From Lophium mytilinum (lineage: Eukaryota), in contig MU004188.1 of assembly GCA_010093605.1 (NCBI GenBank), forward strand, positions 1,491,673-1,555,672: a stretch of DNA of 64,000 nt. The letters run 5' to 3'. The stretch's first letter is position 1. Each line of letters starts with the position of its first letter. The notes beneath the pieces were generated by a model. It was not told the DNA's origin. It searched no databases and worked only from the letters and a program-made list of their open reading frames with translations. Below, one piece after another: positions 45,476 to 64,000 of the stretch. Both the position numbers and the translations under genes were made by a program.

Positions 45476-46324
45476 TCACCCGGGCAAATCGCCCATCATC
45501 AAACAGTTTTTCCAGTTTCTGCAGTAAAAATGGCGCTTGTGTTGCCGGTTCTGTAACACCAAGGCCTCGTCGCTCTAGACAACGACCATCGCCACTGCCA
45601 AAAGACTGCTCTTGACGGCGCGCCCGAATTCGACGGTTTTGTCGCTATATCGACCTAAACGCGAAGAAGTGCATCATGTGGGACTAAGAGGATGTTCCAA
45701 TGCGTCCCGAAGATCGTACTAAACGCTAGGAGGAACTACCTCAGGGTGCATATTCAGGAGCTAAAAACCTCGAGCTGCTGAATCGTGGAGCCCAATCCAT
45801 GACTTTTATAGAGCACGCACGTGTTTGGAGTGCCCCTGGGCGATGCGGAGAAACCGGTGATTGATGACATCTTTCGCTGCTTTTGAATTGCATCACGAAG
45901 AACCGTGCTTTGACATGAGAAGAAAAGGTTCGAGGCGCCCCTGAGCGTTTGGTTCGATAACAGAGGTCGATGTCACATTCATGAGCCCGTGAATCGGAAG
46001 CATAGTAGTTGTATTTTGGCAAAGCAGTAGGATGGACGAGGGATCTTCCGACTTCCCTCGTGGAGGACAAAACTGAACCTTGGAAGGGACGTTTTGAAGA
46101 TATGGGTTCCGTGAGTCAGCAGAATGCCAAGATATCTTCAACATCCCAGGGAAATTTCCGGGGACTCAACTTCACGACTCGTCGCGCGCCAGCCTACAAT
46201 CCATTCCAGAACAGTTGACTATTTGCGGTGTCTTTTACTGCCTTAAAGGCCTCCTACACAATCCAATTGCCTCTAGCAATTCTCCAGTGGCGCACAGCCT
46301 CCAACCCCATCTCCGGCCGCAATT

Positions 46325-46907
46325 ATGGTCCGCTTCGGCAGGAAAGAAGTCTACCTGTACGCACAACCATAGAGAATTCCCACCTACTGCTTTTCAATCG
46401 GCTAACCCCCGCAGACCCAATGCAGTAATAGCATTAATGAAATCCGAACACCTCCCCGCAACCCACGCCAAATTCCGCGTCCCCCTCACCTTCTCCAAGC
46501 TCGACCTCCGCGACTACCTCTACCACGCCTACGGGCTCCGCACCGACAAAATCCGCTCCTACGTGCAGCAACAACGTGTGCAGCACGACCGGCCCGACGC
46601 CACGATGCCGCAACAAAATAAATGGTTCCGGCCAAAGGCAATCAAGCATATGACGGTCGAAATGGACAAGCCGTTTCTGTGGCCGGAAGATCCGGACAAT
46701 TGGGAGCCGTGGAGCAAGGAAATTTTCAATGAGCTGCAGCAAAATGCGAATGACAGGGATAAGCCGGCGACAAGAGTCAAAGCAGCGAAAATGGAGGGGG
46801 ACACGTTAGCGACGCAGGCGCGAGAGCTGCTGGAAGGGAAGAAGAGGTGGAGGCGGACGCCTGTGGATGAAGAGGCGGTGGAGGTGGACAGCGATGTGAA
46901 GATATGA
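46325..46907 (+). CDS. MRP20: Mitochondrial large-subunit ribosomal protein uL23m
   Basis: Spliced MVRFGRKEVYL|PNAVIALMK...AKFRVPLTFSKLDLRDYLYHAYG...KHMTVEMDKPFLWPEDP. An additional upstream exon is possible. Confidence 0.88.
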
Positions 46908-47313: not shown

Positions 47314-50300
47314 TTACGAACCCAGCAAAATGGGCAACAACGGCAACAACACATGAGCACCAACCTGGTTCGCTAGCGGTACGATACTGGTGAAATCCTC
47401 GATCCTCCAGCCTCGTGGCGCACCTTCAGCAAGGTAGATCATGCCGCCAATCACGGGCGCCATGGCGAGCAACATCCATTTGAAGTTCTTGATGACTTTG
47501 TCGACACTGATGAAGAATCCAGTGCCTTCGAGTTCCTTGGCAGTGGATGTCCATTCCATCTTGAGAGAGAACAGGTGGGCGAGGAGAGCATGAGATATGT
47601 GCCAGGACATGCCGCCGAAGAAGATCACTTCCCGGCCTTAGGTCAGATTATGGGTAGACGAGCGACGGGGAACGTACGGAACAAGGGCATCCATTTTATA
47701 CCCTCGAGTAGGGCCCAGAAGAACGTCTTGTCGCCCATGCGGTGGCGGAACCAAGCGAAGCTACCTTTTGTTACAATCCGAATGTGGAAGAAGCGGGAGA
47801 AAACTTACCAAATGGGAGAGATGATGTTGAAGACGAAGAGAGTACCCACTAACATCTTCCAGCTTGAAAGGTAGTAATGGTCCAAATTGGCGGCATACCA
47901 CCCAGTGATGATATAGTTGACAATCGACAGGGGAAGAGCCGCTCCAATCGCATAATACGTACCGATGTACCCGATGATGGTGAACTTCGAGGTAATCTTC
48001 ATGTTTGACCAAAGAAAAGTCCGGAATAGCTTCGTGAAAGGTCCACGCCAAAGCCAGGTGTGAATGGGGTTAAACATCTGCGAGGTCGTGAGAAACGATT
48101 GGATTGAAAACTTTGGTTTGCGTACAAGCTCTGAACACCCATAGGCATATTTTTCCCATCTGAGCAATTCATCGAAGATGGTTAATGAGACACCTTCTTT
48201 AAAATTGCCATGATCTAGATGTGTATCAGTTGGAGAACGCTTCACTTTTAGAGTTATCTCATACCGTAAGTTGCCATTCGGATGACGAAACCAGCAATCT
48301 GTAAGCGGAGGGAGATATCAAAATCTTCGGAGACATGGCTTTCGCTCCAAAATTTCTCGACGCCGTTGTCTTGGAACGACACACTCTGCACCGCTTTCCA
48401 GCGAAGGAAGGCATTATGACCAACGAAGGGTGCAGTGTCACCACTTCCAACGGCGTGGCGGATCGAGAGGTAGACAAGATTTGTGAAGTACGTGATCGCT
48501 TGATTGGAGTCAGTGGAATCTTGGAGAGCTTGAGAGTTGTACGAACCATCTTCAAAGATGGAATGAATGACTTGCATGACGCCGCCTGGAGCAGTTAGGT
48601 ACTTTACCTATGAAGTACGGGAGGAGGTTGACGCACTAGCATGTTGGATGATGGCAACATCAGGACTCTCGGCCATCTCCATAGCCCCCAGAGCCAAGCA
48701 ATCGACAGGCACTTGAGTATCACAATCGACGAGCAGTATGATTTCTCCTAACCTGATGTTTCCCGAAGCTTGCGTGCGGCCTTGATCATCGTCTAATACC
48801 TTACGCATGGCCTGCTCGTACAGATCGTTCTCTTGTTCGAGAGTAATATCCTCTTCCGTGCAGCCTAGTTCAGCAGCGCGAGCTTCGAGTAGCCTCTGCA
48901 GCTCGTCTTCGACCCGAATGCTAAAGTTGAGACAGTAGTTCAGATTGGACGCTTTCTTGAATTTACCAGGCCTCACGAAGCCGTCTTTACCGTGTGGGGG
49001 GCGGGAGCACCAGCCAATATTGTTAAGCTCATAGAATCGCTTGCGTGCGTCTGTCAGGTCAGGCTTGATAGCTTGCATTCCATCTTCACAGACGAAGCTG
49101 CTTCTTATTAACATCCCCAATGAGCCTACAAGTAAGTTGAAGAGATTTACATAGAGGCAGTTCCGCCCTCGGCTTCATACTGCTTGATCGCGGCCATCAG
49201 AGAAGTTACGGTCGGGATGATAACACCTTTTAGGCCTTCTTTGTAGACTGCTCACGTCGTTAGTGGCGCTTAGAAACATTGCATGAGAGGTGCCACATAC
49301 CTGGCATCTGTATACTAATGTGTGGGAGGGCCAAATCACGATGGCGTTCCCTGCGTGGTGCACGCGATGAGTAGTATTTGGAGTTTCCTTCTTTTGGGTC
49401 TTGAATAGGGCCCACAAGCTGGAAAAGTGATCCGATCAGAACGACGAAGAAGAAGAGTGCAAAGAAAACGAATAGTGGAAGAGTCGCAAGCAAACCAAGA
49501 CGCTTCAAGCCGACCGATCCCAACGTACGGATCTCGACGATGATGTTTCTAACAGCCAAGCTCTCCACACAGACGATCAGACAAACAGTCATGCCAATCA
49601 TGAGACTGTGGGTGAGCAAAAATGGTCGTTTCGGGATCTTCATAGCTTCTTCGTCGTCGACGTCGAGATAAACCCCATCTCTCTTCTCCAGTTCTTCAAG
49701 CTCGATTCCTCGTGCAATGATGTTGCTCTTAGACCCTTTCTCACTACGTGAATTCTTGCCATAGACGCTAGGAGTCGTGTATCCGGAATCGCGGCCAGTT
49801 GTGGGTTGGAACATGAATCGGCGATCTTGGTCAGGAATTGCTGCGCCCCAAAGCTAGAAAGCATCAGCTCTGTCTAGTAATGGTATATACACATCACTCA
49901 CAGTTCCCATAATCTTACTCTCTACATCTGCGCCTTGGACCATCAAGTCCTCCGCGGTATGGCTCCAAACAAGGATCAATTTTTCCTGACGAAGGAGACA
50001 CATGAAGTCTCTCCGCCGCACTCCAGTGTCGTTCCTCGCGAGTTCGCGTATACTATCGACCACTGGTACAGTTAAATTGTACGGTCCGAGAGTAAACTCC
50101 GTATCGTCCTTTCCAATCCGAGAGAAGATGGGTGAGCATATTTCCGAGGACATGGTAAACGCGACAGCCAGGTTGAGCTTCTCGCAGACAACCTTGAGCT
50201 CTGCGTTGACATCTTCCGGCTCTGAGATATAATCGACTAATTCGCCGTCTTCAACTTGCATGACTACCCCAAGGTAGTCATACCCCGATGCTCGTAGGCT

Positions 50301-50679
50301 TTCATCTGGCTTCAGCCATCCCTTGTCAAGAAGTCGGCGATACAGAAACTTGGCCATCTATCTAAGCGTTAGTAAGCTCATTTCTCACAACATCTGACCA
50401 TAGCTCGCTCGCCACGTTAAAATGTTACACATTGGCAATGCGGTACACGAGTCAAGATTCCTGCCCGAAAGGCCGGAACCGCATCAACAGATCCGAAAAT
50501 GGACAGGTCGTATTGTTCGAGACTTTACTTACAACTTCATAGCGAGAGACTCTATGTTCCTCAGGCATCGGAAGAAGTGTCCTATTCCGTGAATTTTCAG
50601 GCCTGGAGAACCTTGGTGCGACGGGTATAGGATACGTAGGTATTGAGATGCCAATTGGCGGCGGTATCGTACCACTCAT
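47314..50679 (-). CDS. Family 2 processive glycosyltransferase (multi-pass; putative beta-glucan synthase)
   Basis: ISIQMP|VYKEGL, RPGKFKKASNLNY, DxD motif LVDCDTQVP, APFVGHNAFLRW, SHVSEDFD, ELLRWEKYAYG, several TM helices; many introns. Confidence 0.88.
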
Positions 50680-53249
50680 CGTGTTCCTCGAGCCCAATAT
50701 TGAGCGTAATAGAAGCAAGAAAATACAAGAGGGAGAATGAAAAAGGACAGGGACACTGTGAAATGTAGAAGACGGCCGGAAAGATGTAGTGCCGTCCAGC
50801 TCCGCAAAGCAAGGCTAGAAGATGGCAGGGCCCGTTCCGGACGTGGATATAGGTGCCGCTCGCGGGTTGTCGATAGTTGAGGAATAGCCCCGTGGCCTGT
50901 CATCATCGACCCATTAGCATCTGACGAAGAAGACGCCTCAGTCATGGCTTGACAGATTCCCGCCCAGCCACGTGGTCCAGGTAGGACCGAAGCACTCCGC
51001 AAGGCTTGAGGCTAGTGGCACGCGACTTCAGCGTCGCCGCTGGCAACCATCCGGACGTAACCGCCATAGTCGGGGAAAAGGTTGACGAAATGCAGAACGC
51101 ATGTGATGTACGAGGATTTGAACACCGGACAAGGGTGATGAATTTAGGGGTAATTTTCGTCTCAATAGCATGACTAGGGTACAGTACAGGAAAGTATGCA
51201 AAGCAGTGTTGATCGCTGATTGTCACGGAGTATATACAGACATGAGGCTTGGGAGGTCTTACTTTGGCACTATTTCGGGACTGGTGAGACAGGCTGCTAT
51301 GCCCTCACGAAACCAGCTGAAATGATTGGGCTGAACCGAACTGACAGTCTATGAAGGCCGAACGGCCCGTTCCGCGTACGCAATGATGAGATGTCTAGCA
51401 TCAAGAAGAGACACAGAGCAAAGGGAGACGTGTAGTGAAGACGCTAGTCAGTGATCGCGAAATTATGCCCACTTTCGCAGGTGGTCAGCTGAACTCCTTC
51501 TAGTAACTAGAAGGACAAAGGACGAGGTATGAAAAGTAAGGCCAAGACGAGGCATTGAAAATCTATCTCGTTCTTAAACGCTGCAAGGACGACGGAAGAC
51601 AGCCATTTCCTGACGACGCAGCTTGACATCTGTTTGGCGCAACGGATGGACTGAGACAGGTGTTGAAACGCGTGGGACAACGGAGAGACCTTGGGGTAGG
51701 ACGGGGTTAGGCACCGAGGGCCTGGAAGTGGACCATAGTGGTCACGCAAAAAAGCCCCGGTGTCATCTTATGCCAGTCTTTCGCGACATCGGTAGTTGTG
51801 TGTTTCAAGTGGAGAATGAGAGAAGCTGGTGAGGCACACAAAGCGGTGGAGTGGTCTAGGGTGATCGTCCGAAGGCGCCAACGAGGTCAAATTAAGACTT
51901 TCCCCGGGATCCACGAAACACCACAGGGTCCTCCAAATGCAGTTGGGCTGAGATGCGGGAACGCCCTGAGATCCATGCCGCGCGCCTTGCTGCTATTAGC
52001 TCTATCCCGCGAAGGGCTTTGTCAAGCTCAAGCCTTGTGGCGTCGGGAATTGATAGAATAGAGAATGGCGTCGCAAGTCGGTTGGGACGGCCTCAACACC
52101 AGGAATGCTATCATGACCCTGGCTGCTGCCAACGAATGCTTTGCTTCCACAGTCTACGGTTGGCGCTCAAAGCGAATAGCTGCGTCGGAAATTCCGGGCC
52201 ATGGAGATGCGTGACAAGTCCACTCACCACCCTTTACACGTCCGCAAGAAAAAACCTTAATGGCACTCACCCTAGACCCTCGCATGAGCACTGCACGGAG
52301 GCCACGTCTCCACGTCCCGAACACAGTCAACTGGCTCTCGTAGAACAAGGCCGCTCAAACAGCCTGTACTGTGTAATAGGAGTAGGAGACGACATGACCT
52401 TGCTAACTCGATCCGGAAGTGCAGGATTGTTCACCCTGGCTGAGACCCTGGATCGAGGAAAGCTCCATCAGATTCGCATTCCGCGCACATGGGCGCGGCG
52501 CTACAGGGGACACCCGGAAGCTAGCCCCATCCCTCTGCTGAGTAGGACACTGAATTCACACCATTGACAACACTAATCATACTGTGTATTCAGTCAGTCT
52601 AAGAGATCCCATGCGCAACATGTATCTGTTTAAGCGCTTTCATCATGTTGTTATGGAAACGCTCTGAAATGCCACTGACACATGACCAGACTGTGGCTGC
52701 GCTTCAGGTATCGGCCATAGACCAGAGTGATGTAGTCGTCGGCCAAATTGGGACGTCTGACTCTCCTTTGAGGCACTCTTATTAAGATCCCTGCAGTCGG
52801 CCATGTCTCTGCCTGGAGCACCCTCAATTCTAAACGGTCGACTCTGTGTATGAAACCGCCTGACAGGAGCGAATCCCGACCCCTGGAATAGTATATCCTA
52901 GCCCCTTTGGCAGTGCTTTTCAAACATAGAGCAGCCACCATTCTGGAGTGATCGGTGTTGATCTCAGCAACTGTCAAGAGTCTCCTCCGTCTCATCACGA
53001 GCATTTGCTTGTGTTCCGGCGATCTTGAGTGGACGCCACTAGTCAGATATGTCTCTTCTCCGACTAAGGATCTGTTCTTGATCGCCAATGTTTTCAGCAG
53101 ACCGCGATATCCGATATGCTAATCAGATGCTGTCAGATGCCTGCTATAAGGCTCTCCCCATCCGCATAAATCTGGACTTGATCGCCGCTAGAGAGTCGAA
53201 GGCTCCTCTAATACGTAAACGGCCGCTGTTGCGTGTTCAAGCTATTCAC

Positions 53250-55102
53250 ATGGAGGAGCAAAAGGAGAAAAAACCCGAGCGAATGCCCAGGCCTTCGCCG
53301 CAACCACATGTTCAGGTTGAAAATCCTTTCCAAACGCCTCAAACTGGATCCGTTGCTTCCGTGGCTTCGGCCTCTGGGTCGTACTTCATCGCTGGTGAGC
53401 GAGCTCTTTCGCACTCCACTTTAAGTTAGAAAAAAATCATGTTTGGAGTTGAAAGCTTACAGATTATTGCCACAGAGGAACAGGCACCGCCTTTGAAGCA
53501 ACGGAAGTTCAAGAGCGCAAGATTAGTCGGAGAGTACGAGAAGCCATGGGTAAAGGAGAAGGAGCCGCGAAAGATATGGGATAAAGTCATCTTCTTTGGA
53601 TTTCTGATCGTTGGATTGGGCATCGGAGCTTACATCTGCTATGATGGATGGCGGAGTGTTCCCCACGACAATGTGAGTTGAAATGCACCTCTTTGTGATA
53701 AATAGGTTAAAGGTGGCCTCAGTATTGTCCACTCTTCGAAGACGACTTCAGAAACGGGATAAACCCAGAATATTGGAACCACGAGGTTGAACTCGGCGGC
53801 TTCGGGACTGGTACGTTCGATTGGACGACTTCGGATCCTAGGAACTCCTTCACGGATCCTGAGGGCCTCCACATCGTTCCGACCTTTACTACAGATACGA
53901 CCGACATCACCGAAGCCCAGATAAACGACGGCTATGTCCTCAATCTTACAAAAACGGGTGGTGATGGTAGTTGCACAAGTACGAAAAAGATACCGGGCGG
54001 AGATTGTTCAGTACGCAGTAACATAACCAGCGGATCCATCATCAACCCTGTGCGGAGTGCGCGTCTTACGACTCGAGGAAAGCTTAATCTGACTTACGGC
54101 AAAATTGGTGGGGTTTCCCTGCTGATAGGCCGAAAGAAGCGACATTAACAAGATGCAGAGGTCGTGGCAAAACTTCCCAAAGGCGACTGGCTATGGCCAG
54201 CCATCTGGTGAGTCTACGCCATAACCACTTCTTAGCCATTGCTCACGATGTAAGGATGATGCCTGAGAAAAACACATACGGCGAATGGCCAACGTCTGGA
54301 GAAATAGACATCATGGAATCGAAAGGAAACTACGGCGACGAGTAAGTCTGCAGCTATCCAGACACCGATATCGATATGTAACGAGTTTCCAGCTACGACG
54401 GCGGCCGAGACGAGATCTCCGGAACCCTCCACTGGGGCCCCACGACCGTCCTGGATTTCTTCTGGAAGACGACCGGCAAGCGGGATATCCGCCGGACCGA
54501 CTACTCCAATGACTTCCATCTCATTGGCATGGAGTGGACTCCTAATTACATATATACTTATGTCGACTCGCGTCTCGCGGTAAGCTTCTCTCACTCTCGG
54601 ATCCCGCTCTTGCGAATAATGCTAATGTCTTTCAGCAAACTGTCTTTGTTAGGTTCTCCACCAAACTGGGCAACCTCTGGAAGCGCGGCGGGTTCCAACA
54701 TATGTTCGTCAATGGCTCAGCCTTGGTAAGGACACACCAGCCTTCAATTTCCGAGACCTAAGCAGCTGACCTGACTTGCTCCAGAGCGATCCGTGGTCCC
54801 AGACCGGTCGTCCGAACACCCCTTTCGACGAGCCATTCTATTTGATCCTCAATGTGGCTGTTGGCAGCACTACTGGGTATTTCCCGTAAGTCCAATAACT
54901 CCATTCGGTAAGAGTAAGGGGCGTTGTGGCTGATGATGCGGATAGTGATCGTCAAGGCGATAAGCCCTGGATCAACTTCTCGCCCACGGCTGGACGAGAC
55001 TTCTGGAACGCGCGGAACTCGTGGATGTCGACGTGGGGAAAGGGGAATGAGCGTGGGATGACGATAAAGTCGGTGAAGATGTGGAGAGAGGGGAAGTGCT
55101 GA
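53250..55102 (+). CDS. Glycoside hydrolase family 16 (beta-glucanase/glucan-binding type), type II membrane-anchored
   Basis: N-terminal TM (VIFFGFLIVGLGIGAYIC), HEVELGGFGTGTFDWTT, PVRSARL, GDWLWPAIW, catalytic GEIDIMESKGN, FYLILNVAVG; many introns. Confidence 0.9.
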
Positions 55103-55282: not shown

Positions 55283-55765
55283 TCAGGCTCCATCTGCAGG
55301 CCATGGATCTTTCCACTCGCTCATGTCTGAAACTCCTCTCTCGTGCATACTATCAAAGTGCTCAAGAATGTGCTCATTCCTCAAGTCCCAAGTAAGGAAG
55401 CGATCGCCGCAGAATCCGCAGCGCCTTTTAAATCCGGCAACATAATCTTGCTTCGACTGCCTCACGATGTCCTCAGCATCTCGGTCGGGGTGCTCATGTC
55501 GGATGTGAAATAGCAGCTCCTTGTGTCTGCCAAAGACGGCATATTTCTCTCCCTCAGGTTTGTGTTTGCAGATTCCACATATATAGAACTCCTGTGGTTG
55601 ATGGGTCTCCTCATGTAGCTTCCAGTGTTCTCGAGAGTTGGTTCGGTAACCGCATTTGGCTGTACACCGGTAGACGTATCCAACGCCACTGAGATCTCGA
55701 GGGAAGGCACCTTGTCTGCCGCACATCGCTATATACTGCTCGATCGATTGACGGACTTCTTGGAG
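55283..55765 (-). other. In-frame 160-codon C2H2 zinc-finger extension beyond the TGA of the Ras-kinase gene
   Basis: Same frame as ORF 55766..58387 and open immediately after the TGA. Fingers CTAKCGYRTNSREHWKLHEETH, CGIC...LLFHIRHEH and CGFCGDRFLTWDLRNEHILEHF. Confidence 0.75.
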
Positions 55766-58455
55766 TCAGTGGTCGTTCGATGGTGATGTTTTCTTTTGAG
55801 ACTGCGACGGTGTCTTTGGCACTGTGTAGCCAAGCTCGATATTGTATGATTCCCACCCAGAAAGAATCGTATTAGGAAAAACTACGGCGACAGACTCAAT
55901 TGACCGAATGGGTTCGAACATAGGAGGCGGGCTCCAAGGAGAGTTGACTTTCAGGCGATGCCGGCAGCATTCACCTGTCCATTGCTCGGCGTCCGTGAGG
56001 GATACTAGGTCAGGAGCTGAGATTCGGTTGTCGGAGCGAGGTTGTAGCATCGCGTAACACCAACTCAACATTGCCAATTGAGAATCTGATTGTATGAGCC
56101 TTAAGCCTTCCTTACTCCAGCATCTCGTGAGTTGACAGAGCCTTATGATCCACTGCACTGTCTTAGCCTTGTTCACATGGAAGGCTTTCCTCCCATCTAG
56201 GGTTTGCTTAAAGTCGTGGAACGTGGTAAGTGAGACGCCATGCTCCCACAATAGCACTGTAGCCATCTCCAAGAACACGCATCCAAGCGAAAAGATGTCA
56301 GCGGCTCGACCACGTCTCTTTTGTTCCGCTACTTCTGGGGCACAATACATAGGTGTCTTCGAGTCGACAGTGCCGATAGTGGAGCTTGTCAACTCGTCCT
56401 GCACATCATGGGCGATTCCAAAGTCGGTGAGGATGATAGTCGCTCCCTTGACGAGGATGTTGGCAGGCTTGATGTCTCGATGTTTAATCCGCTCTGAGTG
56501 AAGGTAAGCCAGCGAAGAGGCGAGGCAGCCAAACCAATGCCGCATAGGAGAATCGGGCGCCGGCTCAGGATGTCTATCCAAATACTCGGCGAGATTCATC
56601 GTCGCCACTGGCTGCATGAGAATGGCAAATTTGTTTCCTACGGTATACGTGGCTGATATCCTGATGACATGTTCGTGATTTAATCGTTTCATGATGTCGA
56701 TTTCGCTGCGAATCCTGCGCGTAGTCTCTGCGGAGCGAGCCCTTTGCACCATGATAGTTTTCCTGGCATACGTGACAGCGGCCAAACCGTCTGGTTGCTG
56801 TGATTTTGCCTCGACTTCATCCACAAACCCATAGTGTCCATTGCCAAGCACATCGATGTGCCTGTAAGGGACGTCCCGAGGGCTTTCGTAATCTTCGTGT
56901 TGTATGATTCTGAGTACCTGTCGCTCCGGTGCGTCCCGAGTGGCTTCAGTCCCAGTCTCTAATGGAAGTTCCTTGTTATCGATCCCAAGGCTAAGATTCG
57001 TAGTAGCTGTTTGGATCGACGACGCAGTTTTGTCCTGCTCAGACTTCGCTGCTGCATCAAGTGCCCTCATTAAGTAGTTTACCGCGTGAATTCCCATATA
57101 TTCGAAGTCTGCGGCGCCTTGGCCTCGCACTGTCCCTTCACTTACTGCTAGAGCAGTGAGCTTTCCTCCATCATTTTTCTCGTTCTCGTGTGCGCTCTCA
57201 GAGGCTTTAGCTCGTGATCTCGATGCTGATGACGTAGATCCTTGCGAAGGAGATTGAGACTCCTTACTTGGCGATTTTACTTCCCCAAGGGGAGTCGAAG
57301 GACACTGTGGCGTCGGCTTTCCCGTCCTTTGGTCCTTATTACTAGAAGTGGAGATTGGGAATGAGAATAAAGCTTCCTGTGGTGTGTGGCTCCTATGCTG
57401 TGTTGATCGCGTATCTGACAACCCGATTGATCTTGGAGGCATTGGCGCTTGGATTCGAGATGATGACAATGAGCCCGCCGGGGAATCGTGTAGACCAGTG
57501 TCAGCAAAATCATCATCCTCGTCGGGAAAACGAGACATTCCCAAAGGTGGATGAATTGTCTTCTGTTGCTGCACAGACAATAGCCCTCGCTCAGGGGAGG
57601 TTTTACGCCTACGCAAGCCATCCCATATGACCTGTTCATCACCCTCGTCAAGCTCCTCCAGCCCGTCGATAGTTCGCAATTGATCGGGATTACCCTTGAC
57701 TCTAGTCTTGGCGCGTTCGCCGTGCCGTAAAGCAGAAAATCGCTCCGCTATATTTTTGACTAGCCCTGAGCGTTGACTGGATTTCTTCGGCTTCTTTGGA
57801 GGTGATGCAATGCCTGTCTTGAGCAATCGAGAAGCTGCTCTCTGTTTCCGCAATTCGCGGACCACATCGTAAAACGCCCTTTCTACATTGATGGACTCCT
57901 TCGCGGAAGCCTCAACAAACCCGATCCCGTGTCGTTTGGCCAACAAACCCGCCTCGGCAGTGCTGACTTCTCTTTCTATCGCCCTACTATCGCATCGGTT
58001 TCCAACCAGCATTATTCGTCGTGAGACGGCTCCCTCCATCTCATAGTGGGGCCTATTGATACGGTGTATGTGACCGATGTATTTGGTCACAGCAAGGTAA
58101 GACTTCCTAGACGTAATGCTGTACACGACAAGGAATCCGTCCGCATCTCTTATCCATTGATGCCTCAGTGCAGTGACCTCTCCTTGCCCAGCCGAGTTTA
58201 TAACTTCTACCAAGGATGGTTGGCCATCAATTATAGCTTCCTTTCGGAAGGAGTCGTCGACAGTAGGGTCGTAGGTGGTTACAAAATGGTTCAGGATAAA
58301 CTTAGATGGTGTTAGGGACGTTACTATGTAAGGCGCAGGTGCAGTCAAGGAAATGTAGAACCAACTTGATTGATTAAGCCAGTACAATCTTCTGGATTTT
58401 CACCGAGAACTTCCAGTTTATACGTCGGTCTCCTCGTGCTTGACACATTGTCCAT
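55766..58455 (-). CDS. Ras-like (Ras2-derived, degenerate) domain fused to a Ser/Thr protein kinase
   Basis: Exon 1 58455-58366 (MDNVSSTRRPTYKLEVLGENPEDCTGLINQ), intron 58301-58365, exon 2 FILNHFVTTYDPTVDDSFRK...NSAGQ...QWIRDADGFLVVYSITS...LVGNRCD...FVEASAK. Kinase motifs GNGHYG, YARK, HRDIKPAN, DFG, APE, DIFSLGCVFLEM. Confidence 0.88.
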
Positions 58456-59132
58456 CGTGACATCTCACGAAGGCAAAGAGCCTCCTGCTGGTGGGCTGCC
58501 TTAACGCTGGGAGACCCTGATGACGCGACGAGAATACTTTGGGGGATTCGCGAGACACAAGAATGCATGCTAGCCATACTAGCATATAGGAAGCCCCATA
58601 CTGCCACAGCGACTTGAGACGGAACGTAAGTGAAGAAGCAGAAGGCTGGAAAGTACAGTACAGTGAAGCTGATCCACGATCCAGGCTAGGCCATTGTAGG
58701 ATAGCTTCGTGTGGCTGTGTGGCGCGTATTCCTGGGTGCTGCAGGTGGGGCGAACTATTCCAAGGTTGAGAGGTGTGTGAGATACATTAATTGGACGTCT
58801 ACAGACTGTTTTCACGTCCGACAGTTGACTCCAAACATTCTCTACGCAACAGAGAGCTTTCGATCTTTGAGAATGTACACTCAGCCAATAAGCGGGGTTT
58901 TGTCACCCCTGGTAAGACTTCGTGCACTAAAAGCCACCTGCAGACTACTCTTCGGATTTGTGATGAATCGTTATCACTTCGTTTTGACTCTTTGCTTCAC
59001 GTAGTAATCAAGATATGTGTGGTATATTGCTTACGCATCGGTTGACCAGGCACCATAGCGCAGTCTACATTTCTCCTATGGCATTAGCCAGAGGTATCCA
59101 CAAGGACCAACCTGCATAACCACCTCGCTGAT

Positions 59133-60086
59133 TCACAACATCCTCTTCACCCAATCCAACCTCGTCCCTACAGCCGCGACCGACAATTTCGCCGACGGGA
59201 CCAGCATATCAAACCCATGGAACGCCCCATCCCAGACATGCAAATCCGCCTTTCCTCCAGCCTTCCAAATCCCCGCCGCAAACGTAACCACCTCATCCCT
59301 GAACGGCTCCGCAGACCCCACATCTAAAAACGTTGGTGGCAGCCCCGAGAGATCCTTTGCCCTCGCCGCCGCCGCATACTGACTGACCCCTTCACTCCCC
59401 GCCTGATCCCCAAGCAGGCTCGACCACCCAAACGCGCTCTTCTCCTGGTTCCACGTGCCCACATTCGGATACTGCCTCGCAGAAATAGAGTCATTGTGGT
59501 CATCCAACATGGGACAGATAAGGCAAAGAGCGCGCAACGTCGGGCCGCCCTTGTCTCTGACCGTTAGAGCCAGACTCGCGGATAGTCCACCCCCCGCCGA
59601 CTGGCCCGCGAGCATGAGTCTTTCCGGATCGATGCCTAGCTCGCCGAAATGCTCGCCCACCCACTTCAAGCCGGTGTAGCAGTCGTCTAGTGGAGCTGGG
59701 TGGGGATGCTCAGGCGCGAGGCGGTATTCCACCGACACGCCTACGGCGTCGAGGTGCTCGACCCAGTCGCAGAGGAAGGAAGCTCCGAGATAGCGGTTGC
59801 CCATGAACATGCCGCCGCCATGGATGAAGTAGATGCCTGGTCTTGGCTTGTCGGTGCTGGTGCTGGGCTTGAAGATGGATATGTTGATGTCGCCATTGGG
59901 GCCAGGGATAGTCTGTTCCTCGACGGTGATTTGCCGTCCAGCGGTGGCCTTTTCCGCAGTATACATCGAACCCGTGAGCTGCCGCAGCATCGGTAAGATC
60001 TCCTTGCTCAACTTGGGACCAACGGGCAGCTGAGCAAGAGCCACGCTCAGCTCGGCATCGTACGGTGGGGCTGGAATCGCTGCCAT
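59133..60086 (-). CDS. Alpha/beta-hydrolase, hormone-sensitive-lipase family esterase; intronless
   Basis: HGGG oxyanion motif, VEYRLAPEHP, nucleophile GQSAGG, EPFRDE, HGF. Confidence 0.92.
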   Translation of the reverse strand: MAAIPAPPYDAELSVALAQLPVGPKLSKEILPMLRQLTGSMYTAEKATAGRQITVEEQTIPGPNGDINISIFKPSTSTDKPRPGIYFIHGGGMFMGNRYLGASFLCDWVEHLDAVGVSVEYRLAPEHPHPAPLDDCYTGLKWVGEHFGELGIDPERLMLAGQSAGGGLSASLALTVRDKGGPTLRALCLICPMLDDHNDSISARQYPNVGTWNQEKSAFGWSSLLGDQAGSEGVSQYAAAARAKDLSGLPPTFLDVGSAEPFRDEVVTFAAGIWKAGGKADLHVWDGAFHGFDMLVPSAKLSVAAVGTRLDWVKRML

Positions 60087-61157
60087 TATTGCTGGCGAGG
60101 CTTTGGATTGGTGGTTTGTCTCCAGTTGTCTTTTGTTCGGAAACTCTGGGCTGCGATCGTCGACACGACTATCTTCACTTGAGGTCTCGATTAGCAATCT
60201 ATCCGTATTTCTAAACGCCGTTTGCTGGTCGGTACCGATATCCGAACCGGCTCTACGGCCTCTCTCCGAAACGCGATACTAGTTCATCTAGACCTCGGGG
60301 GTCCCCATGCGGGGTAGTGGCGGACGTACTTTTTCTGACAGCCGCAAAAGATTGGTCGAGAAAGCCTTCGGCCGAACCTATTAACTTATGACGGGAGGTA
60401 GACATGCCCGAAGAGCTTGAATATTACTAAAATTGGATGGAGGTTGGAGGCTCGTGGGGCGGATAAATCTACTCCGCGGGAACAGCTTCCGTCAAGTGAA
60501 CGATGAAGGACTGATTATCGAGACACACTACCATGCCCTCTGTAAGCTTTATAGATACAGCACAAAATTCCGAGTCTAACAACTGTTAACCGTGCTTGAA
60601 ATACTTCAAATTTCTTTACAGAAATTTGAACGTGGTGTAAACCGATCATTTGGTATGTCTGACACGTTTTTTTAGCCATCTCGGACAGCCGTAAAAGGTA
60701 TAAGTAATTGTACCTGGCAACTGTCGATAGATGCTGGAATGCTCTCGCGGCATAAATTTGGTGGACTAGATAACGGTTTAGTGTAAGTCATACGCGGAAA
60801 GTGCAGCGATGATGAAAGAGCATGAACGCAGTGTTTCTCAGAGAGAACCAGTAAAAAAGAATTTAATTCTCTGCTACGCGACAAGAGCTATTTTATATCG
60901 CTAAGTGCATTGCCAGACTTCCGAAATGCTGGTATGAGTGTCTCAATCTTTTCCAAGGGGTATTGTTTACGCACGCCATCCAATGCAAATTGAGTGAAGA
61001 ACGAAAGTGACATAGGAAATCAGGACCATTTTGAAAAAGGAACGACTCAAGAGTCTTGGGTATATAACGCCAAGTGACAGGTTCCGAGCGCCGGATGCTA
61101 GACGGAAAAAATGAAACCCGTGAAAGTAGAGAAGGGCGTGAGAGGATGAGTATCCTG

Positions 61158-64000
61158 TTAAGCTCGCCACAAAGACTCTTCTTCAATCGGCATTGGAGTG
61201 CGATTTTGCAACTCCTCCAGGGACTGGTCGAGGATGTCCTCCTCGCTGTCTGCCCGCGAAGCCATTGATAATGGAGTTCGCAGGAGCAATGCTTCGCGTG
61301 AGGCCCTTGAGTCAGTCTCGGTTTCCAAGGGCATGGCGTCTGGCCTTAAAGCTGTGGGCTCCTCCTCACTAGCTTTTGCTTTTGCTTTTGCTTTTTGCGC
61401 CCGCTCCCTCCTCAACTCTTCTCTCTGCCGCATTACTTCCTGTTCCTTGTCTACTGCTTTCTCTCGACGCTCTTCAACATCCTTGCGCTTGACCACCTTC
61501 TTTAGCGCATCGCTTGCTTGAATGAGACCATCAATACTAATGGCGTGATTCGTCATCTGGTGGTTTATGTAGTGGTACACTCCCGCAGGACTATCACACT
61601 CCCTCAAAGCTTTCTCGTTTAGCTTAAGCAACGCGAGTGCCACCTGGAAGAGGAAGGTTGAGCCGTCATGCATACACAAGACGACATCCCAGACGCGAAA
61701 TAGTGCCTCGGCTGATAAGCAATCAGTGAAGACGGAAAGAAACCACTGGAACGTGAGCGCTTCAAGCTCAATCTCAAGCTCATCAAGATGAGCTGAAAGC
61801 TTCGGTAGCAGCTCCACCACATATTCGCGTAGAACAGTCTGATCTGCACGAGAAGTGAGGAGTTGCTGATCGTAGTACTTCTCAGGCAAGATATTCTCGA
61901 TCATGGTGGTCAGGACCCAAAATGCGTCCTCGGCTGTTGGCATGATGAGGAGTAAGCAGGCAGTGATTAAATTCATGCCCTGGCAGTAGCCAACCTCGGG
62001 ATTCCGGCGGGAGTAAGCGATGAGCACCTCGTTAAGCTTGTGGACGCCCGCCCCTTTGCGGAAATAGATGTTATCCGTGAGCGTTCGATTAATGTCCATC
62101 TGTATCTGCGCTACGATGCTCGGATTATCCACACCATTGTTTACGAGATCGTCGTAGTAGCCGGGGACACGAAGTGCGGATGCTCCGCTGCATTCGGCCC
62201 AGATCTTAGCGCGGTAGGCCACAGGTATGCCTCCTAGGACCAGTTGCTTGAATTCTTGCCATTTTGCTCTCCCGATTTTTCCCTTATTTCCCAGGCCGGC
62301 GACACCAATGAGTTCCCCATCCCCGAGAAGGGCTTCTGGCATAGTAAGATTTCTTGGGCGACCTTCGCCAACAGTAGCGGACTCGCCCTCTCGCTTTCGC
62401 TCTGCTCGAACTTTGCGAAGAAAGTCATTCCATTTTACTGTTTTATCTCTCTGTAGAGAATCGTGTAAGTCGGTCAGTTGCTCTAACAAAGCTTTGACCG
62501 GGTCTGGCTGGTGCTGCTGTGGCCGGATCGGGCTTGCAGGTCCGACGGATATCGATGGACTTGTGATAGCAAATTCTGCATTTCCTGAAACAATACGGGA
62601 TGGTGCGGGCTCAGGATTGACGCTGACAAGAGGCATGGTCCTGGTCTTAGATACGACGACTGGAGGGGCTTTAGGAGCCGAATCGGTTTCTGCGGCATCG
62701 ACCGTAGTTATAGGTGCAGCAGACGGGGTGTGAGACAGTAACTCCGTAGGGAATGTAGCCAGCTTCAAGAAATCTTGCCATCGGCTTGGCGCTTGAGGAC
62801 CATTCTGTTCTTCGATAGACGAGCCGGTGCTCCCAGGCCTTGATGCAGGTCTAGAATCAGACGGTGTTTCAATTGGAGGAGTCTTGACATCTGGGTCTTG
62901 TCCGATGGTCTTCAGAACAGATCTCGCATCGCTCAGCGATTCGACATTACTGTTACGTTTGTGCTTTGCAATAGCGGCGGCCGCCTCGCTTTGCCGCTTT
63001 TTCCGTCTTTGGTCGTAAATGAATCCGAATCTATCCGTCAGATATTCGCTGCTTTGGCTGAAGTTGTTGTGTTGCTGGACTAAAGTTGGAGGCCTGGAGT
63101 CTTCCGGCAGTATTGTGTCCATTTCGACTGGTCCGAGGTTGCTCATGTTCCGGTTTAGGCTATTAGGGCTTGCAACACCCTCTGGGGGTATGCTTTTGAT
63201 AGTCCCGTTAGGTCCAAGAGAGCTTCTTGCGGCGCGCGGCCGCCCGTTTGCCTTGGCACCAGCATTGGCCGGTCCAGTTGACTGAGACGTTCTCGGTGAC
63301 TCCGTAGAAGGTGCGCGATCCGCAGCACTGCCGCTAGCAGACGTTGCGGCGCGACCTCTCAGGGTACCCTGTTTGTCACCAGGGCGGATGGCCTGGCTCT
63401 TGCCAGCCACCGCTTGCAATACCCAGTTCGTTACCGAGACTGAAGATCTTCGAGATGATGCAGTTGATTGCTCCTCATCTTGACTCTGAAGACGGCGGAG
63501 GGTGGGCACTGCGCCGCCCTGTCCATTTGACGGAGGTACGAATAGGTCGCTACTGATGGGCTTCCGCGGTAGTTTCGAGTTGCTAGACGCCCGAGATCGA
63601 GTTTGAAAATCAGTATCGGTGCCCAATTTGCTGGTTATGCTGGGCGCCCGGCTCGTTTTAGTATTCGTGCCACTCCACAAGAAGTTCTTCCAGTTGCGTG
63701 CTGAATCTTTCGGCATCCCAGAAGTAGAGTTGAGCGACTCCGTTTCGCCATCAGCTATTCGTTGGCTAAACAGTGACGCATTGTCCTGTATGCTTGTGGT
63801 GTCAAAGTCGGAGACGTTGTCCGCCATAGCTCGAGCAATCCGCTGTTCCATTGGATCATCGGGGTGTGTGCCAGGGAGCCCGCTGTCACTCCTCCTGTTC
63901 CTCGCCTTTGGATCCTCATTCCGTTGCTCCTGACTGCGGTCAAGCTCACGTAGACGCGATTCGATATCCATATTTGAAACCTCGCATTCCTGCAACATCT
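61158..64000 (-). CDS. TBC-domain Rab GTPase-activating protein (5' end lies outside the window)
   Basis: TDRFGFIY, GIPVAYRAKIW, IQMDINRT (Arg finger), GYCQGMN (Gln finger), QWFLSVF, RVWD. ORF is open at the window edge. Confidence 0.93.
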   Translation of the reverse strand, partial: MLQECEVSNMDIESRLRELDRSQEQRNEDPKARNRRSDSGLPGTHPDDPMEQRIARAMADNVSDFDTTSIQDNASLFSQRIADGETESLNSTSGMPKDSARNWKNFLWSGTNTKTSRAPSITSKLGTDTDFQTRSRASSNSKLPRKPISSDLFVPPSNGQGGAVPTLRRLQSQDEEQSTASSRRSSVSVTNWVLQAVAGKSQAIRPGDKQGTLRGRAATSASGSAADRAPSTESPRTSQSTGPANAGAKANGRPRAARSSLGPNGTIKSIPPEGVASPNSLNRNMSNLGPVEMDTILPEDSRPPTLVQQHNNFSQSSEYLTDRFGFIYDQRRKKRQSEAAAAIAKHKRNSNVESLSDARSVLKTIGQDPDVKTPPIETPSDSRPASRPGSTGSSIEEQNGPQAPSRWQDFLKLATFPTELLSHTPSAAPITTVDAAETDSAPKAPPVVVSKTRTMPLVSVNPEPAPSRIVSGNAEFAITSPSISVGPASPIRPQQHQPDPVKALLEQLTDLHDSLQRDKTVKWNDFLRKVRAERKREGESATVGEGRPRNLTMPEALLGDGELIGVAGLGNKGKIGRAKWQEFKQLVLGGIPVAYRAKIWAECSGASALRVPGYYDDLVNNGVDNPSIVAQIQMDINRTLTDNIYFRKGAGVHKLNEVLIAYSRRNPEVGYCQGMNLITACLLLIMPTAEDAFWVLTTMIENILPEKYYDQQLLTSRADQTVLREYVVELLPKLSAHLDELEIELEALTFQWFLSVFTDCLSAEALFRVWDVVLCMHDGSTFLFQVALALLKLNEKALRECDSPAGVYHYINHQMTNHAISIDGLIQASDALKKVVKRKDVEERREKAVDKEQEVMRQREELRRERAQKAKAKAKASEEEPTALRPDAMPLETETDSRASREALLLRTPLSMASRADSEEDILDQSLEELQNRTPMPIEEESLWRA

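Follow-up and report, generated by a model that had tools for sequence, protein, structure and literature searches.

G domains and protein kinases are found in one polypeptide in the ROCO proteins (LRRK2, DAPK1 and the Dictyostelium Roco kinases), and proteins of the LRRK2 type have raised the question of how a G domain controls a kinase in cis. The pseudoGTPases keep the G fold with destroyed G1 and G3 motifs and are presumed to serve as interaction modules; to our knowledge, natural pseudoGTPases derived from Ras proper are rare. In the plant kinase-fusion and tandem-kinase resistance proteins, a kinase is combined with an extra domain that may act as bait. Here we describe a gene of the wood-dwelling fungus Lophium mytilinum (Dothideomycetes, Mytilinidiales) that encodes, in a single chain, a Ras-derived domain with a degenerate P-loop, a long linker and a protein kinase. 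The gene lies in a stretch of 64,000 nucleotides (nt) of contig MU004188.1 (assembly GCA_010093605.1, positions 1,491,673 to 1,555,672), hereafter the window, whose numbering is used throughout. The anatomy and expression of this gene are far more certain than its role.

The gene is on the minus strand and runs from the ATG at 58455 to the TGA at 55768-55766, with one intron and a product of 874 amino acids (aa). Its features, in the direction of transcription, are the following (pLDDT, predicted local distance difference test):

58456..58531, minus strand: 5' untranslated region, up to the start of the RNA-derived X3 contig, which begins at 58531, 76 nt 5' of the ATG.
58366..58455, minus strand: exon 1, 30 codons, with beta-1, the degenerate P-loop and the start of alpha-1; its translation is MDNVSSTRRPTYKLEVLGENPEDCTGLINQ.
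58381..58404, minus strand: G1/P-loop codons, reading GENPEDCT in place of GxxxxGK[S/T] (sequence and alignment).
58301..58365, minus strand: intron 1, 65 nt, GTTGGT...CTAAC (branch site)...AAG, with GT..AG ends (sequence and X3 contig).
55769..58300, minus strand: exon 2, 844 aa (translation).
57812..58300, minus strand: remainder of the Ras G domain, with switch I YDPT, NSAGQ at 58198-58184, NRCD at 58000-57989, SAK at 57907-57899, and alpha-5 (Pfam, PDB sequence matches, AlphaFold, Foldseek and the motif table).
56921..57799, minus strand: linker of ~293 aa, predicted to be disordered (pLDDT; free of Pfam families).
56003..56866, minus strand: protein kinase domain, with HRD at 56482-56474 and DFG at 56425-56417 (Pfam, alignment and pLDDT).
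55769..56002, minus strand: C-terminal tail, with G-x-C-C (GECC, from 55975) and W..N.ELGY.VP, then the end of the protein; the same motifs stand near the C-termini of the relatives P0010, P0012, P0013, P0015, P0017, P0170 and others.
55766..55768, minus strand: stop codon TGA, followed by CTC (a UGA-CU context; sequence).

Four public runs contain the locus. Two of them, X1 and X2, are possibly the source DNA and not independent, and the others are X3 and X4; no run is on record as RNA, and X3 and X4 are taken as RNA-derived solely because their contigs are without the intron. The X3 contig, of 7026 nt, shows 0 differences from the window and a single joint, at which it skips precisely 58301-58365 (ends CT..AC on the plus strand), and it continues unbroken from 58300 to 55000 and beyond. 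Such a precise skip of a GT..AG segment indicates that the contig derives from spliced RNA, and thus that the predicted intron is real and that the message is unbroken from the Ras domain through linker and kinase to beyond the stop. The source of X4 is a relative, here called organism C, with roughly 88-95% nucleotide identity to the window. One of its contigs stops at 58300 and is followed by 28 letters that match the end of exon 1, so that the exon 1-exon 2 joint present in X3 is seen in X4 as a loose end, pointing to the same splice in organism C. The exon 1 product is also identical to the N-terminus of a public Lophium model (P0009). By our arithmetic, the chance of a stop-free frame of 844 codons is ~(61/64)^844 = 3e-18, and that of the 293-codon linker alone ~8e-7.

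A further X4 joint, from 55940 to 56129 (ends GA..GT, depth 3.3, side 22), was disregarded as non-canonical. At its other end, the X3 contig runs ~3.5 kb past 55000 (window ~51441-55000). It probably merges neighbouring or convergent transcripts, and thus the 3' end of the gene is not definable from X3.

By sequence and predicted structure, the N-terminal part of the protein is a Ras-subfamily fold. The Pfam Ras family (PF00071) matches the exon 2 product alone at 1.7e-31, and with exon 1 included at 4.7e-35 over positions 3-161 of the 162 of its hidden Markov model (HMM), and the closest solved sequences are K-, N- and H-Ras (~1e-31). An AlphaFold model of the first 250 residues has a mean pLDDT of 75, rising to 93 over beta-1 and the P-loop, and the order beta1-alpha1-beta2-beta3-alpha2-beta4-alpha3-beta5-alpha4-beta6-alpha5, which with its six strands and five helices is the full G-domain topology. 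Compared by Foldseek with KRAS (6mbq), the model gives a template modelling (TM) score of 0.91, a root-mean-square deviation of 2.1 Å and 40% identity.

The G motifs were aligned against those of P0052, a fungal Ras of canonical type, and those in the Ras domains of the fusion relatives. They are compared here with those of Mytilinidion, whose protein (70%) and the Lophium model itself are the only sequences with more than ~50% identity to the Ras part among the best 150 proteins listed from a HMMER scan of 1.84 billion representatives:

G1: GGGGVGKS in canonical Ras, GENPEDCT in Lophium, GEHREDCT in Mytilinidion.
G2: T35 kept in Lophium (YDPTVDDSF) and in Mytilinidion (with a one-residue loop insertion).
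G3: DTAGQ in canonical Ras, NSAGQ in Lophium, STAGQ in Mytilinidion.
G4: NKCD in canonical Ras, NRCD in Lophium, NRCD in Mytilinidion.
G5: SAK kept (EASAK) in Lophium and in Mytilinidion.

In the Lophium P-loop, K16 is replaced by C and the glycines G12, G13 and G15 by N, P and D, with acidic residues (E11, E14 and D15) at the phosphate positions. In G3, D57 has become N and T58 has become S, with G60 and Q61 retained, and in Mytilinidion D57 has become S. In both genera N116 and D119 of G4 are retained with K117 changed to R, and F28, T35, G60 and Q61 are retained as well. Ras needs K16 and the Mg site for tight nucleotide binding. With K16 and D57 gone and three acidic residues at the phosphate sites, ordinary GTP/GDP binding is very unlikely, and to judge from these motifs the Ras-derived domain has almost certainly ceased to bind or cycle GTP/GDP. 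The 840 nt upstream contain G....GK[ST] in none of the minus-strand frames. There is also no CAAX lipidation box: the domain leads into the linker and kinase, and the protein ends in ...SPSNDH.

The degenerate P-loop is itself conserved, since Lophium and Mytilinidion share 6 of its 8 residues and only 1 of the 8 agrees with canonical Ras. The P-loop was lost before the two genera split. The organism C transcript encodes EDCTGLINQ in the same place, with 2 differences in 28 nt, both synonymous (TGT to TGC and ATC to ATT).

Between the Ras domain and the kinase, no Pfam family was found at E<=0.01. The pLDDT of the linker is below 50 over exon 2 residues 168-411 and 421-460, with short helices at 182-190 and 401-424, and organism C has an in-frame +6 indel in it, at 56989. 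The kinase domain (Pkinase, PF00069, 2e-40, residues 479-766 of the exon 2 product) is predicted with a pLDDT of ~80-97. Its motifs read LGNGHYG, K514, E533, H607-R-D609, K611, N614, D626-F-G and P655-E656, and all residues that are near-invariant in 26 aligned family members are present (G486, G488, K514, E533, H607, D609, K611, N614, D626, F627, P655, E656, R665 and others). It is thus a Ser/Thr kinase with every catalytic motif, and presumably an active one. The nearest solved kinases are generic matches, the best being NEK7 (5e-20). The relatives of the protein end ~10-25 residues after the G-x-C-C/W..N.ELGY.VP tail, as does the Lophium protein, which marks the TGA as the family-typical end. 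That the paired cysteines of G-x-C-C are acylated or bind a metal is a speculation.

An earlier note on this DNA had described a single 874-aa frame behind one 65-nt intron, with a complete Ras fold, a linker of about 300 aa (~290 residues with a pLDDT below 50 by our estimate) and a kinase with all its motifs, and this description is borne out by the spliced and unbroken X3 contig, the HMM coverage, the similarity to KRAS and the invariant kinase residues. Our alignment also agrees with its reading of the altered G1, G3 and G4 motifs, of the kept YDPT and SAK and of the missing CAAX box. Its term nucleotide-free is well founded as an inference, given the missing K16 and D57 and the acidic residues in the P-loop, and the 840 nt upstream offer nothing like the different first exon with a restored P-loop that it had named as a possible refutation. 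Pfam likewise finds no COR or LRR domain and places Roc below the cut-off, in line with the separation from Roco/LRRK proteins made there.

In order to place the kinase, we searched with this part of the protein, and took 119 proteins at E<=1e-40 as its close kinase relatives; the domain counts are our own, from that table. An N-terminal Ras domain is present in 11 of the 119, and in 10 of these 11 together with ankyrin repeats, so the architecture is not unique. All 11 are within the 19 best kinase matches, and one of them is the 'hypothetical protein GP486_002665' of Trichoglossum hirsutum (P0170). In two of them, P0172 and P0178, the first exon is visible and encodes canonical P-loops (GAGGVGKS and GDGGVGKT), and P0172 carries a 16-residue read-through insertion exactly at the Lophium intron position. 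A short motif after the Ras domain also aligns between Lophium and the fusion relatives. P0015 has an N-terminal Ras domain that is more eroded (PF00071 at only 6.5e-7, with no P-loop or DTAG) before the kinase, and in P0037 the kinase comes first and the Ras domain second, the latter with a canonical P-loop and AKAD in place of NKxD. These last two proteins indicate that Ras-kinase pairings arose repeatedly.

The other partner domains among the 119 are HMG box (C-terminal, 4), HET (7), Hsp70 (8), DUF7580 (5), fucose lectin (4), TPR (5), WD40 (3), HeLo (1) and many Ank. Judged from these sequences, the kinase clade is fungus-specific, with recurrent N-terminal Ras domains, and domain shuffling in it is rampant (Ras, Ank, DUF7580, HMG, HET and lectin are swapped). 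The nearest full-length kinase relatives are P0013, P0014, P0168 and P0169 from Geoglossomycetes (46-47% identity), which have an HMG box between G-x-C-C and the terminal W..ELMGY; this position suggests that DNA-binding modules were joined C-terminally to this kinase clade in another lineage. A word-based protein search gave only 5 weak kinase matches, and scanning metagenomes with the protein brought up no more than 2 kinase loci, both weak (24-25% identity). The database entries for the relatives are hypothetical, unnamed or automatically named only, and the literature that we searched, subscription journals and supplements being outside our coverage, describes no Ras-(ankyrin)-kinase or Ras pseudoGTPase-kinase from fungi; the earlier note likewise knew of no characterised fungal protein with this architecture.

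In a kinase tree of 30 rows, Lophium and Mytilinidion fall in a clade of 24 rows with a support of 99/98, of which the backbone is not resolved. This clade holds every N-terminal Ras fusion of the tree, the HMG fusions and the DUF7580-kinases. In a Ras tree of 19 rows, Lophium groups (91/98) with fusion group B and with two other Ras proteins of the 'QWIRDG' subtype, in an order that the tree does not settle, and fusion group A sits with the other Ras type. The separation of groups A and B suggests that the Ras domains in the kinase clade were probably captured or exchanged more than once.

We consider it on balance probable that the Lophium protein is a kinase with a nucleotide-independent Ras-fold module for docking or cis-regulation. 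The kinase would be the output, and the Ras-derived domain a constitutive docking or regulatory module that does not depend on nucleotide, either linking the kinase to some partner in the Ras pathway by which the Ras fold is recognised, or acting on the kinase in cis. By analogy, the relatives with canonical P-loops look like GTP-gated kinases, with a ROCO-like logic but of Ras type and without COR. An ancestral GTP-gated kinase, like the Ras-Ank-kinase relatives with intact P-loops, may have become ungated; in the Mytilinidiales the gate would then be fixed, with the fold, the core of the effector lobe and the base-binding motifs persisting and phosphate binding gone.

Several observations weigh against this proposal. 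In an approximately unbiased (AU) test, a single clade made up exclusively of the 13 Ras-linked rows of the kinase tree is rejected (p=0.0015), where the Mytilinidion kinase was counted as Ras-linked on account of the adjacent Ras model, and the common descent of the fusion with the Ras-Ank-kinases is consequently not shown. The public annotations of both Lophium and Mytilinidion give Ras and kinase as separate models. In Lophium switch II is eroded (QGEV in place of QEEY), and in Mytilinidion one residue is inserted into switch I. The kept G4 and G5 motifs might reflect some remaining ability to bind a guanine-containing ligand.

The remaining points against it concern the rate of evolution, and they are also what favours a reading in which only the kinase still works and the Ras domain, left over from a former GTP-gated kinase, is decaying under relaxed constraint, chiefly in Lophium. 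Lophium and Mytilinidion are identical at 121 of 173 residues in the Ras part (70%) vs ~90% in the kinase. The end branch of the Ras tree is 0.38 for Lophium vs 0.11 for Mytilinidion, or 3.5 times as long, and the corresponding kinase branches are 0.066 and 0.054. Overall, the rate of change in the Ras part is about three times that in the kinase. Organism C differs at 39 of 313 nt in the C-terminal Ras half, equal to the linker (49/395 and 26/268), with 10/182 nt in the N-terminal Ras half and 30/562 nt in the kinase. The codon classes are available for 40 of the 232 differences, those that were listed: the 4 in Ras codons 99-118 are all nonsynonymous and 0 are synonymous, and the synonymous/nonsynonymous counts are 6/10 in the linker and 4/3 in the kinase. 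The Ras part shows signs of relaxed constraint, and the even more eroded Ras domain before the kinase of P0015 offers a parallel for such decay.

Decay of this kind does not sit well with several other results. The reading frame is intact in three taxa (Lophium, Mytilinidion and organism C), and the indels of organism C within the Ras-kinase and the downstream zinc-finger open reading frames (ORFs) are -3, +6 and +3, all multiples of 3, whereas single bases make up 3 of the 4 indels 5' of the ATG. The dead P-loop is conserved between the genera and has only synonymous changes in organism C, and the G domain is predicted to fold confidently. Core positions are also preferentially kept, Lophium and Mytilinidion agreeing in 35 of 42 family-conserved Ras columns vs 79 of 120 variable ones (Fisher p=0.048). 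A vestigial Ras domain is in our view unlikely, and we prefer to see in it a module that is still of use to the kinase.

The Ras domain could instead be an integrated decoy or sensor, an idea of the earlier note, in which a dead Ras would be mimicking cellular Ras for the Ras-modifying toxins or Ras-binding factors of competitors, with the kinase as reporter. The company of the kinase clade is suggestive here, as it is elsewhere fused to domains of non-self recognition or cell death (the HET, DUF7580, lectin, TPR, WD40, HeLo and Ank fusions among the 119), and Pkinase is among the N-terminal domains of fungal NLRs according to PMC9815663. The faster evolution of the Ras part would also fit a target mimic under conflict. 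However, Pfam finds no NLR, HET, HeLo or other executioner module in the protein, and the flanking genes are of housekeeping type. A surface read by a toxin should be kept, yet Mytilinidion has the switch I insertion and Lophium the eroded switch II. Moreover, a nucleotide-free Ras is a poor mimic of the GTP and GDP forms that known Ras-modifying toxins hit. We hold this explanation to be rather unlikely, compared with a docking or regulatory module for the kinase.

A third explanation is that the locus makes two products, a separate Ras-like protein of 250 aa and a separate kinase, the fusion not being the main product. This is what the public models imply. KAF2496273.1 (P0009), 'ras-domain-containing protein [Lophium mytilinum]', has 250 aa, identical through ...RAKTRVK and followed by 18 out-of-frame residues; it ends early because a modelled intron shifts the frame into a stop. 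This intron, deduced from the tail of the model and the sequence, is placed as follows:

57569..57693, minus strand: 'intron' of 125 nt in the public model of 250 aa, GTAATC..GTGCAG.

For Mytilinidion resinicola the annotation has two models in a row, KAF2808465.1 (Ras, 204 aa) and KAF2808464.1 (partial kinase, 239 aa), which match the two ends of the ORF. The 125-nt intron has GT..AG ends, and contigs drop rare isoforms, so a minor Ras-only isoform may exist. Against this, the RNA-derived X3 contig is unspliced across 57693-57569 and continuous from the 5' untranslated region past the stop, and the 125-nt intron is unsupported. The ~290 codons of the linker are open and in frame, with the organism C indel there also in frame, and the relatives are single Ras-...-kinase polypeptides. 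Nor is there an ATG-initiated kinase model of at least 464 aa in the protein collection, or a Lophium kinase model of at least 464 aa among the matches of the kinase-part search. Two separate products are quite improbable on this evidence. The single 874-aa chain is in our reading the product of the gene; the public annotation shortens it to 250 aa, so that the gene model is here corrected, and the Ras-kinase fusion is absent from public proteomes.

Finally, that the domain is still a switch, binding nucleotide or a guanine-containing ligand in a non-canonical way and so gating the kinase, is most improbable: N116, D119, SAK, F28, T35, G60 and Q61 are kept in both genera despite the loss of the P-loop before their split, but K16 and D57, which belong to what tight binding requires, are lost and E11, E14 and D15 lie where the phosphates would be. 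The conserved E-D-C-T P-loop with its intact base-binding motifs could also be a repurposed ligand or redox pocket.

Beyond the stop codon of the Ras-kinase gene, a second ORF continues in the same frame:

55283..55726, minus strand: downstream ORF of 147 aa with three C2H2-type fingers, a terminal WKDPW and its own stop (translation; the link to the gene is unproven).

After the TGA, the frame stays open for 160 codons, consisting of 13 sense codons and then the ATG at 55726, 39 nt past the stop. For fungi and mammals, UGA CU has been reported as the core motif of read-through (PMC4207609). A minor read-through isoform, which would make the locus a recoded two-part unit with a dead-Ras, kinase and zinc-finger protein, is improbable in our estimate; if real, it would tie a Ras-fold docking domain and a kinase to nucleic-acid- or protein-binding fingers. 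The HMG box of the nearest full-length kinase relatives occupies the corresponding C-terminal place. An alignment of the finger module shows every zinc ligand unchanged in 16 of 16 sequences, and the Pfam search of this ORF found no family. Of the 20 longer proteins with the module, 17 also have a HET domain and a kinase of the same family. These fused homologues are ordered fingers, kinase, HET and are thus not colinear with the Lophium locus. The ESM Atlas has the product of the finger ORF as a separate protein, and a complex prediction of the kinase (residues 455-844) with this product scored 0.00, which speaks neither for nor against an interaction. No stimulatory RNA structure was found, the 116 nt after the stop folding worse than shuffled sequences (z +1.87). 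The X3 contig covers both ORFs, though a contig is no proof of a single transcript. We regard read-through, or a coupled gene pair, as a lead rather than a finding.

In organism C, the stop of the finger ORF is changed at 55285 from TGA to GGA, so that the ORF would run on, and there is an in-frame CCG insertion behind 55690. A 216-nt in-frame intron that would bypass the stop of the Ras-kinase gene (55974..55759, GTGAAT..CTGAC..AAG) was considered and rejected, as the X3 contig has no such joint; it is also disfavoured because it would remove the conserved G-x-C-C and W..ELGY tail, where the relatives end too.

The neighbouring genes in the window are:

59133-60278, minus strand: Abhydrolase_3.
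61158-63998, minus strand: RabGAP-TBC.
47805-50357, minus strand: DUF7928 and glycosyltransferase-2 gene, in pieces.
46098-46907, plus strand: L23-like ribosomal protein.

To judge from their sequences, these look like housekeeping-type genes, with no obvious NLR or HET cluster around the Ras-kinase gene. A plus-strand ORF at 54382-54729 had been guessed to be a glycoside hydrolase, for which Pfam gave no support.

The dead-Ras kinase of Lophium and its relatives with canonical P-loops form a ready-made evolutionary comparison, which may reveal the way in which a G domain governs a kinase in cis and what stays useful in a Ras fold after the loss of nucleotide. They also draw attention to a fungus-specific kinase clade with freely exchanged partner domains at both termini, all of them so far unstudied. 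Closest to the Lophium protein are the fungal Ras-ankyrin-kinase proteins, among them P0170 and the metagenomic relatives P0010 and P0172-P0179. Like it, they carry a Ras domain at the N-terminus and, at the C-terminus, a kinase from the same clade (40-46% identity). The post-Ras motif and the tail with G-x-C-C and W...LGY are common to both, as is an intron at the same place after alpha-1, to judge from the read-through insertion of P0172. They differ in having ankyrin repeats where Lophium has a disordered linker (with no Ank family at E<=0.01), and in the canonical P-loops of P0172 and P0178, which are dead in Lophium.

With the ROCO proteins, the Lophium protein has in common the presence of a G domain and a kinase in one polypeptide, so that the idea of regulation in cis applies to it too, and its relatives have ankyrin repeats. 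In contrast to them, its G domain is of the Ras family (PF00071, 121 bits, vs 24.9 bits for Roc, PF08477, with a cut-off of 27), is N-terminal and has a dead P-loop, and the protein has no COR, LRR or WD40 domain (Pfam, E<=0.01). The likeness to the plant kinase-fusion and tandem-kinase resistance proteins, in which an extra domain beside the kinase may be a bait, was pointed out in the earlier note and is an analogy only, with no sign of an immune role, a pseudokinase partner or an effector in Lophium. Like the pseudoGTPases, the Ras-derived domain has kept its G fold with G1 and G3 destroyed and would serve in interactions; unlike them, it is a true member of the Ras subfamily (40% identity with K-Ras), is joined to a kinase that looks active and has kept G4 and G5. 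In an arrangement that is itself uncharacterised, the Ras pseudoGTPase-kinase of Lophium thus belongs among the G-domain kinases and the pseudoGTPases.

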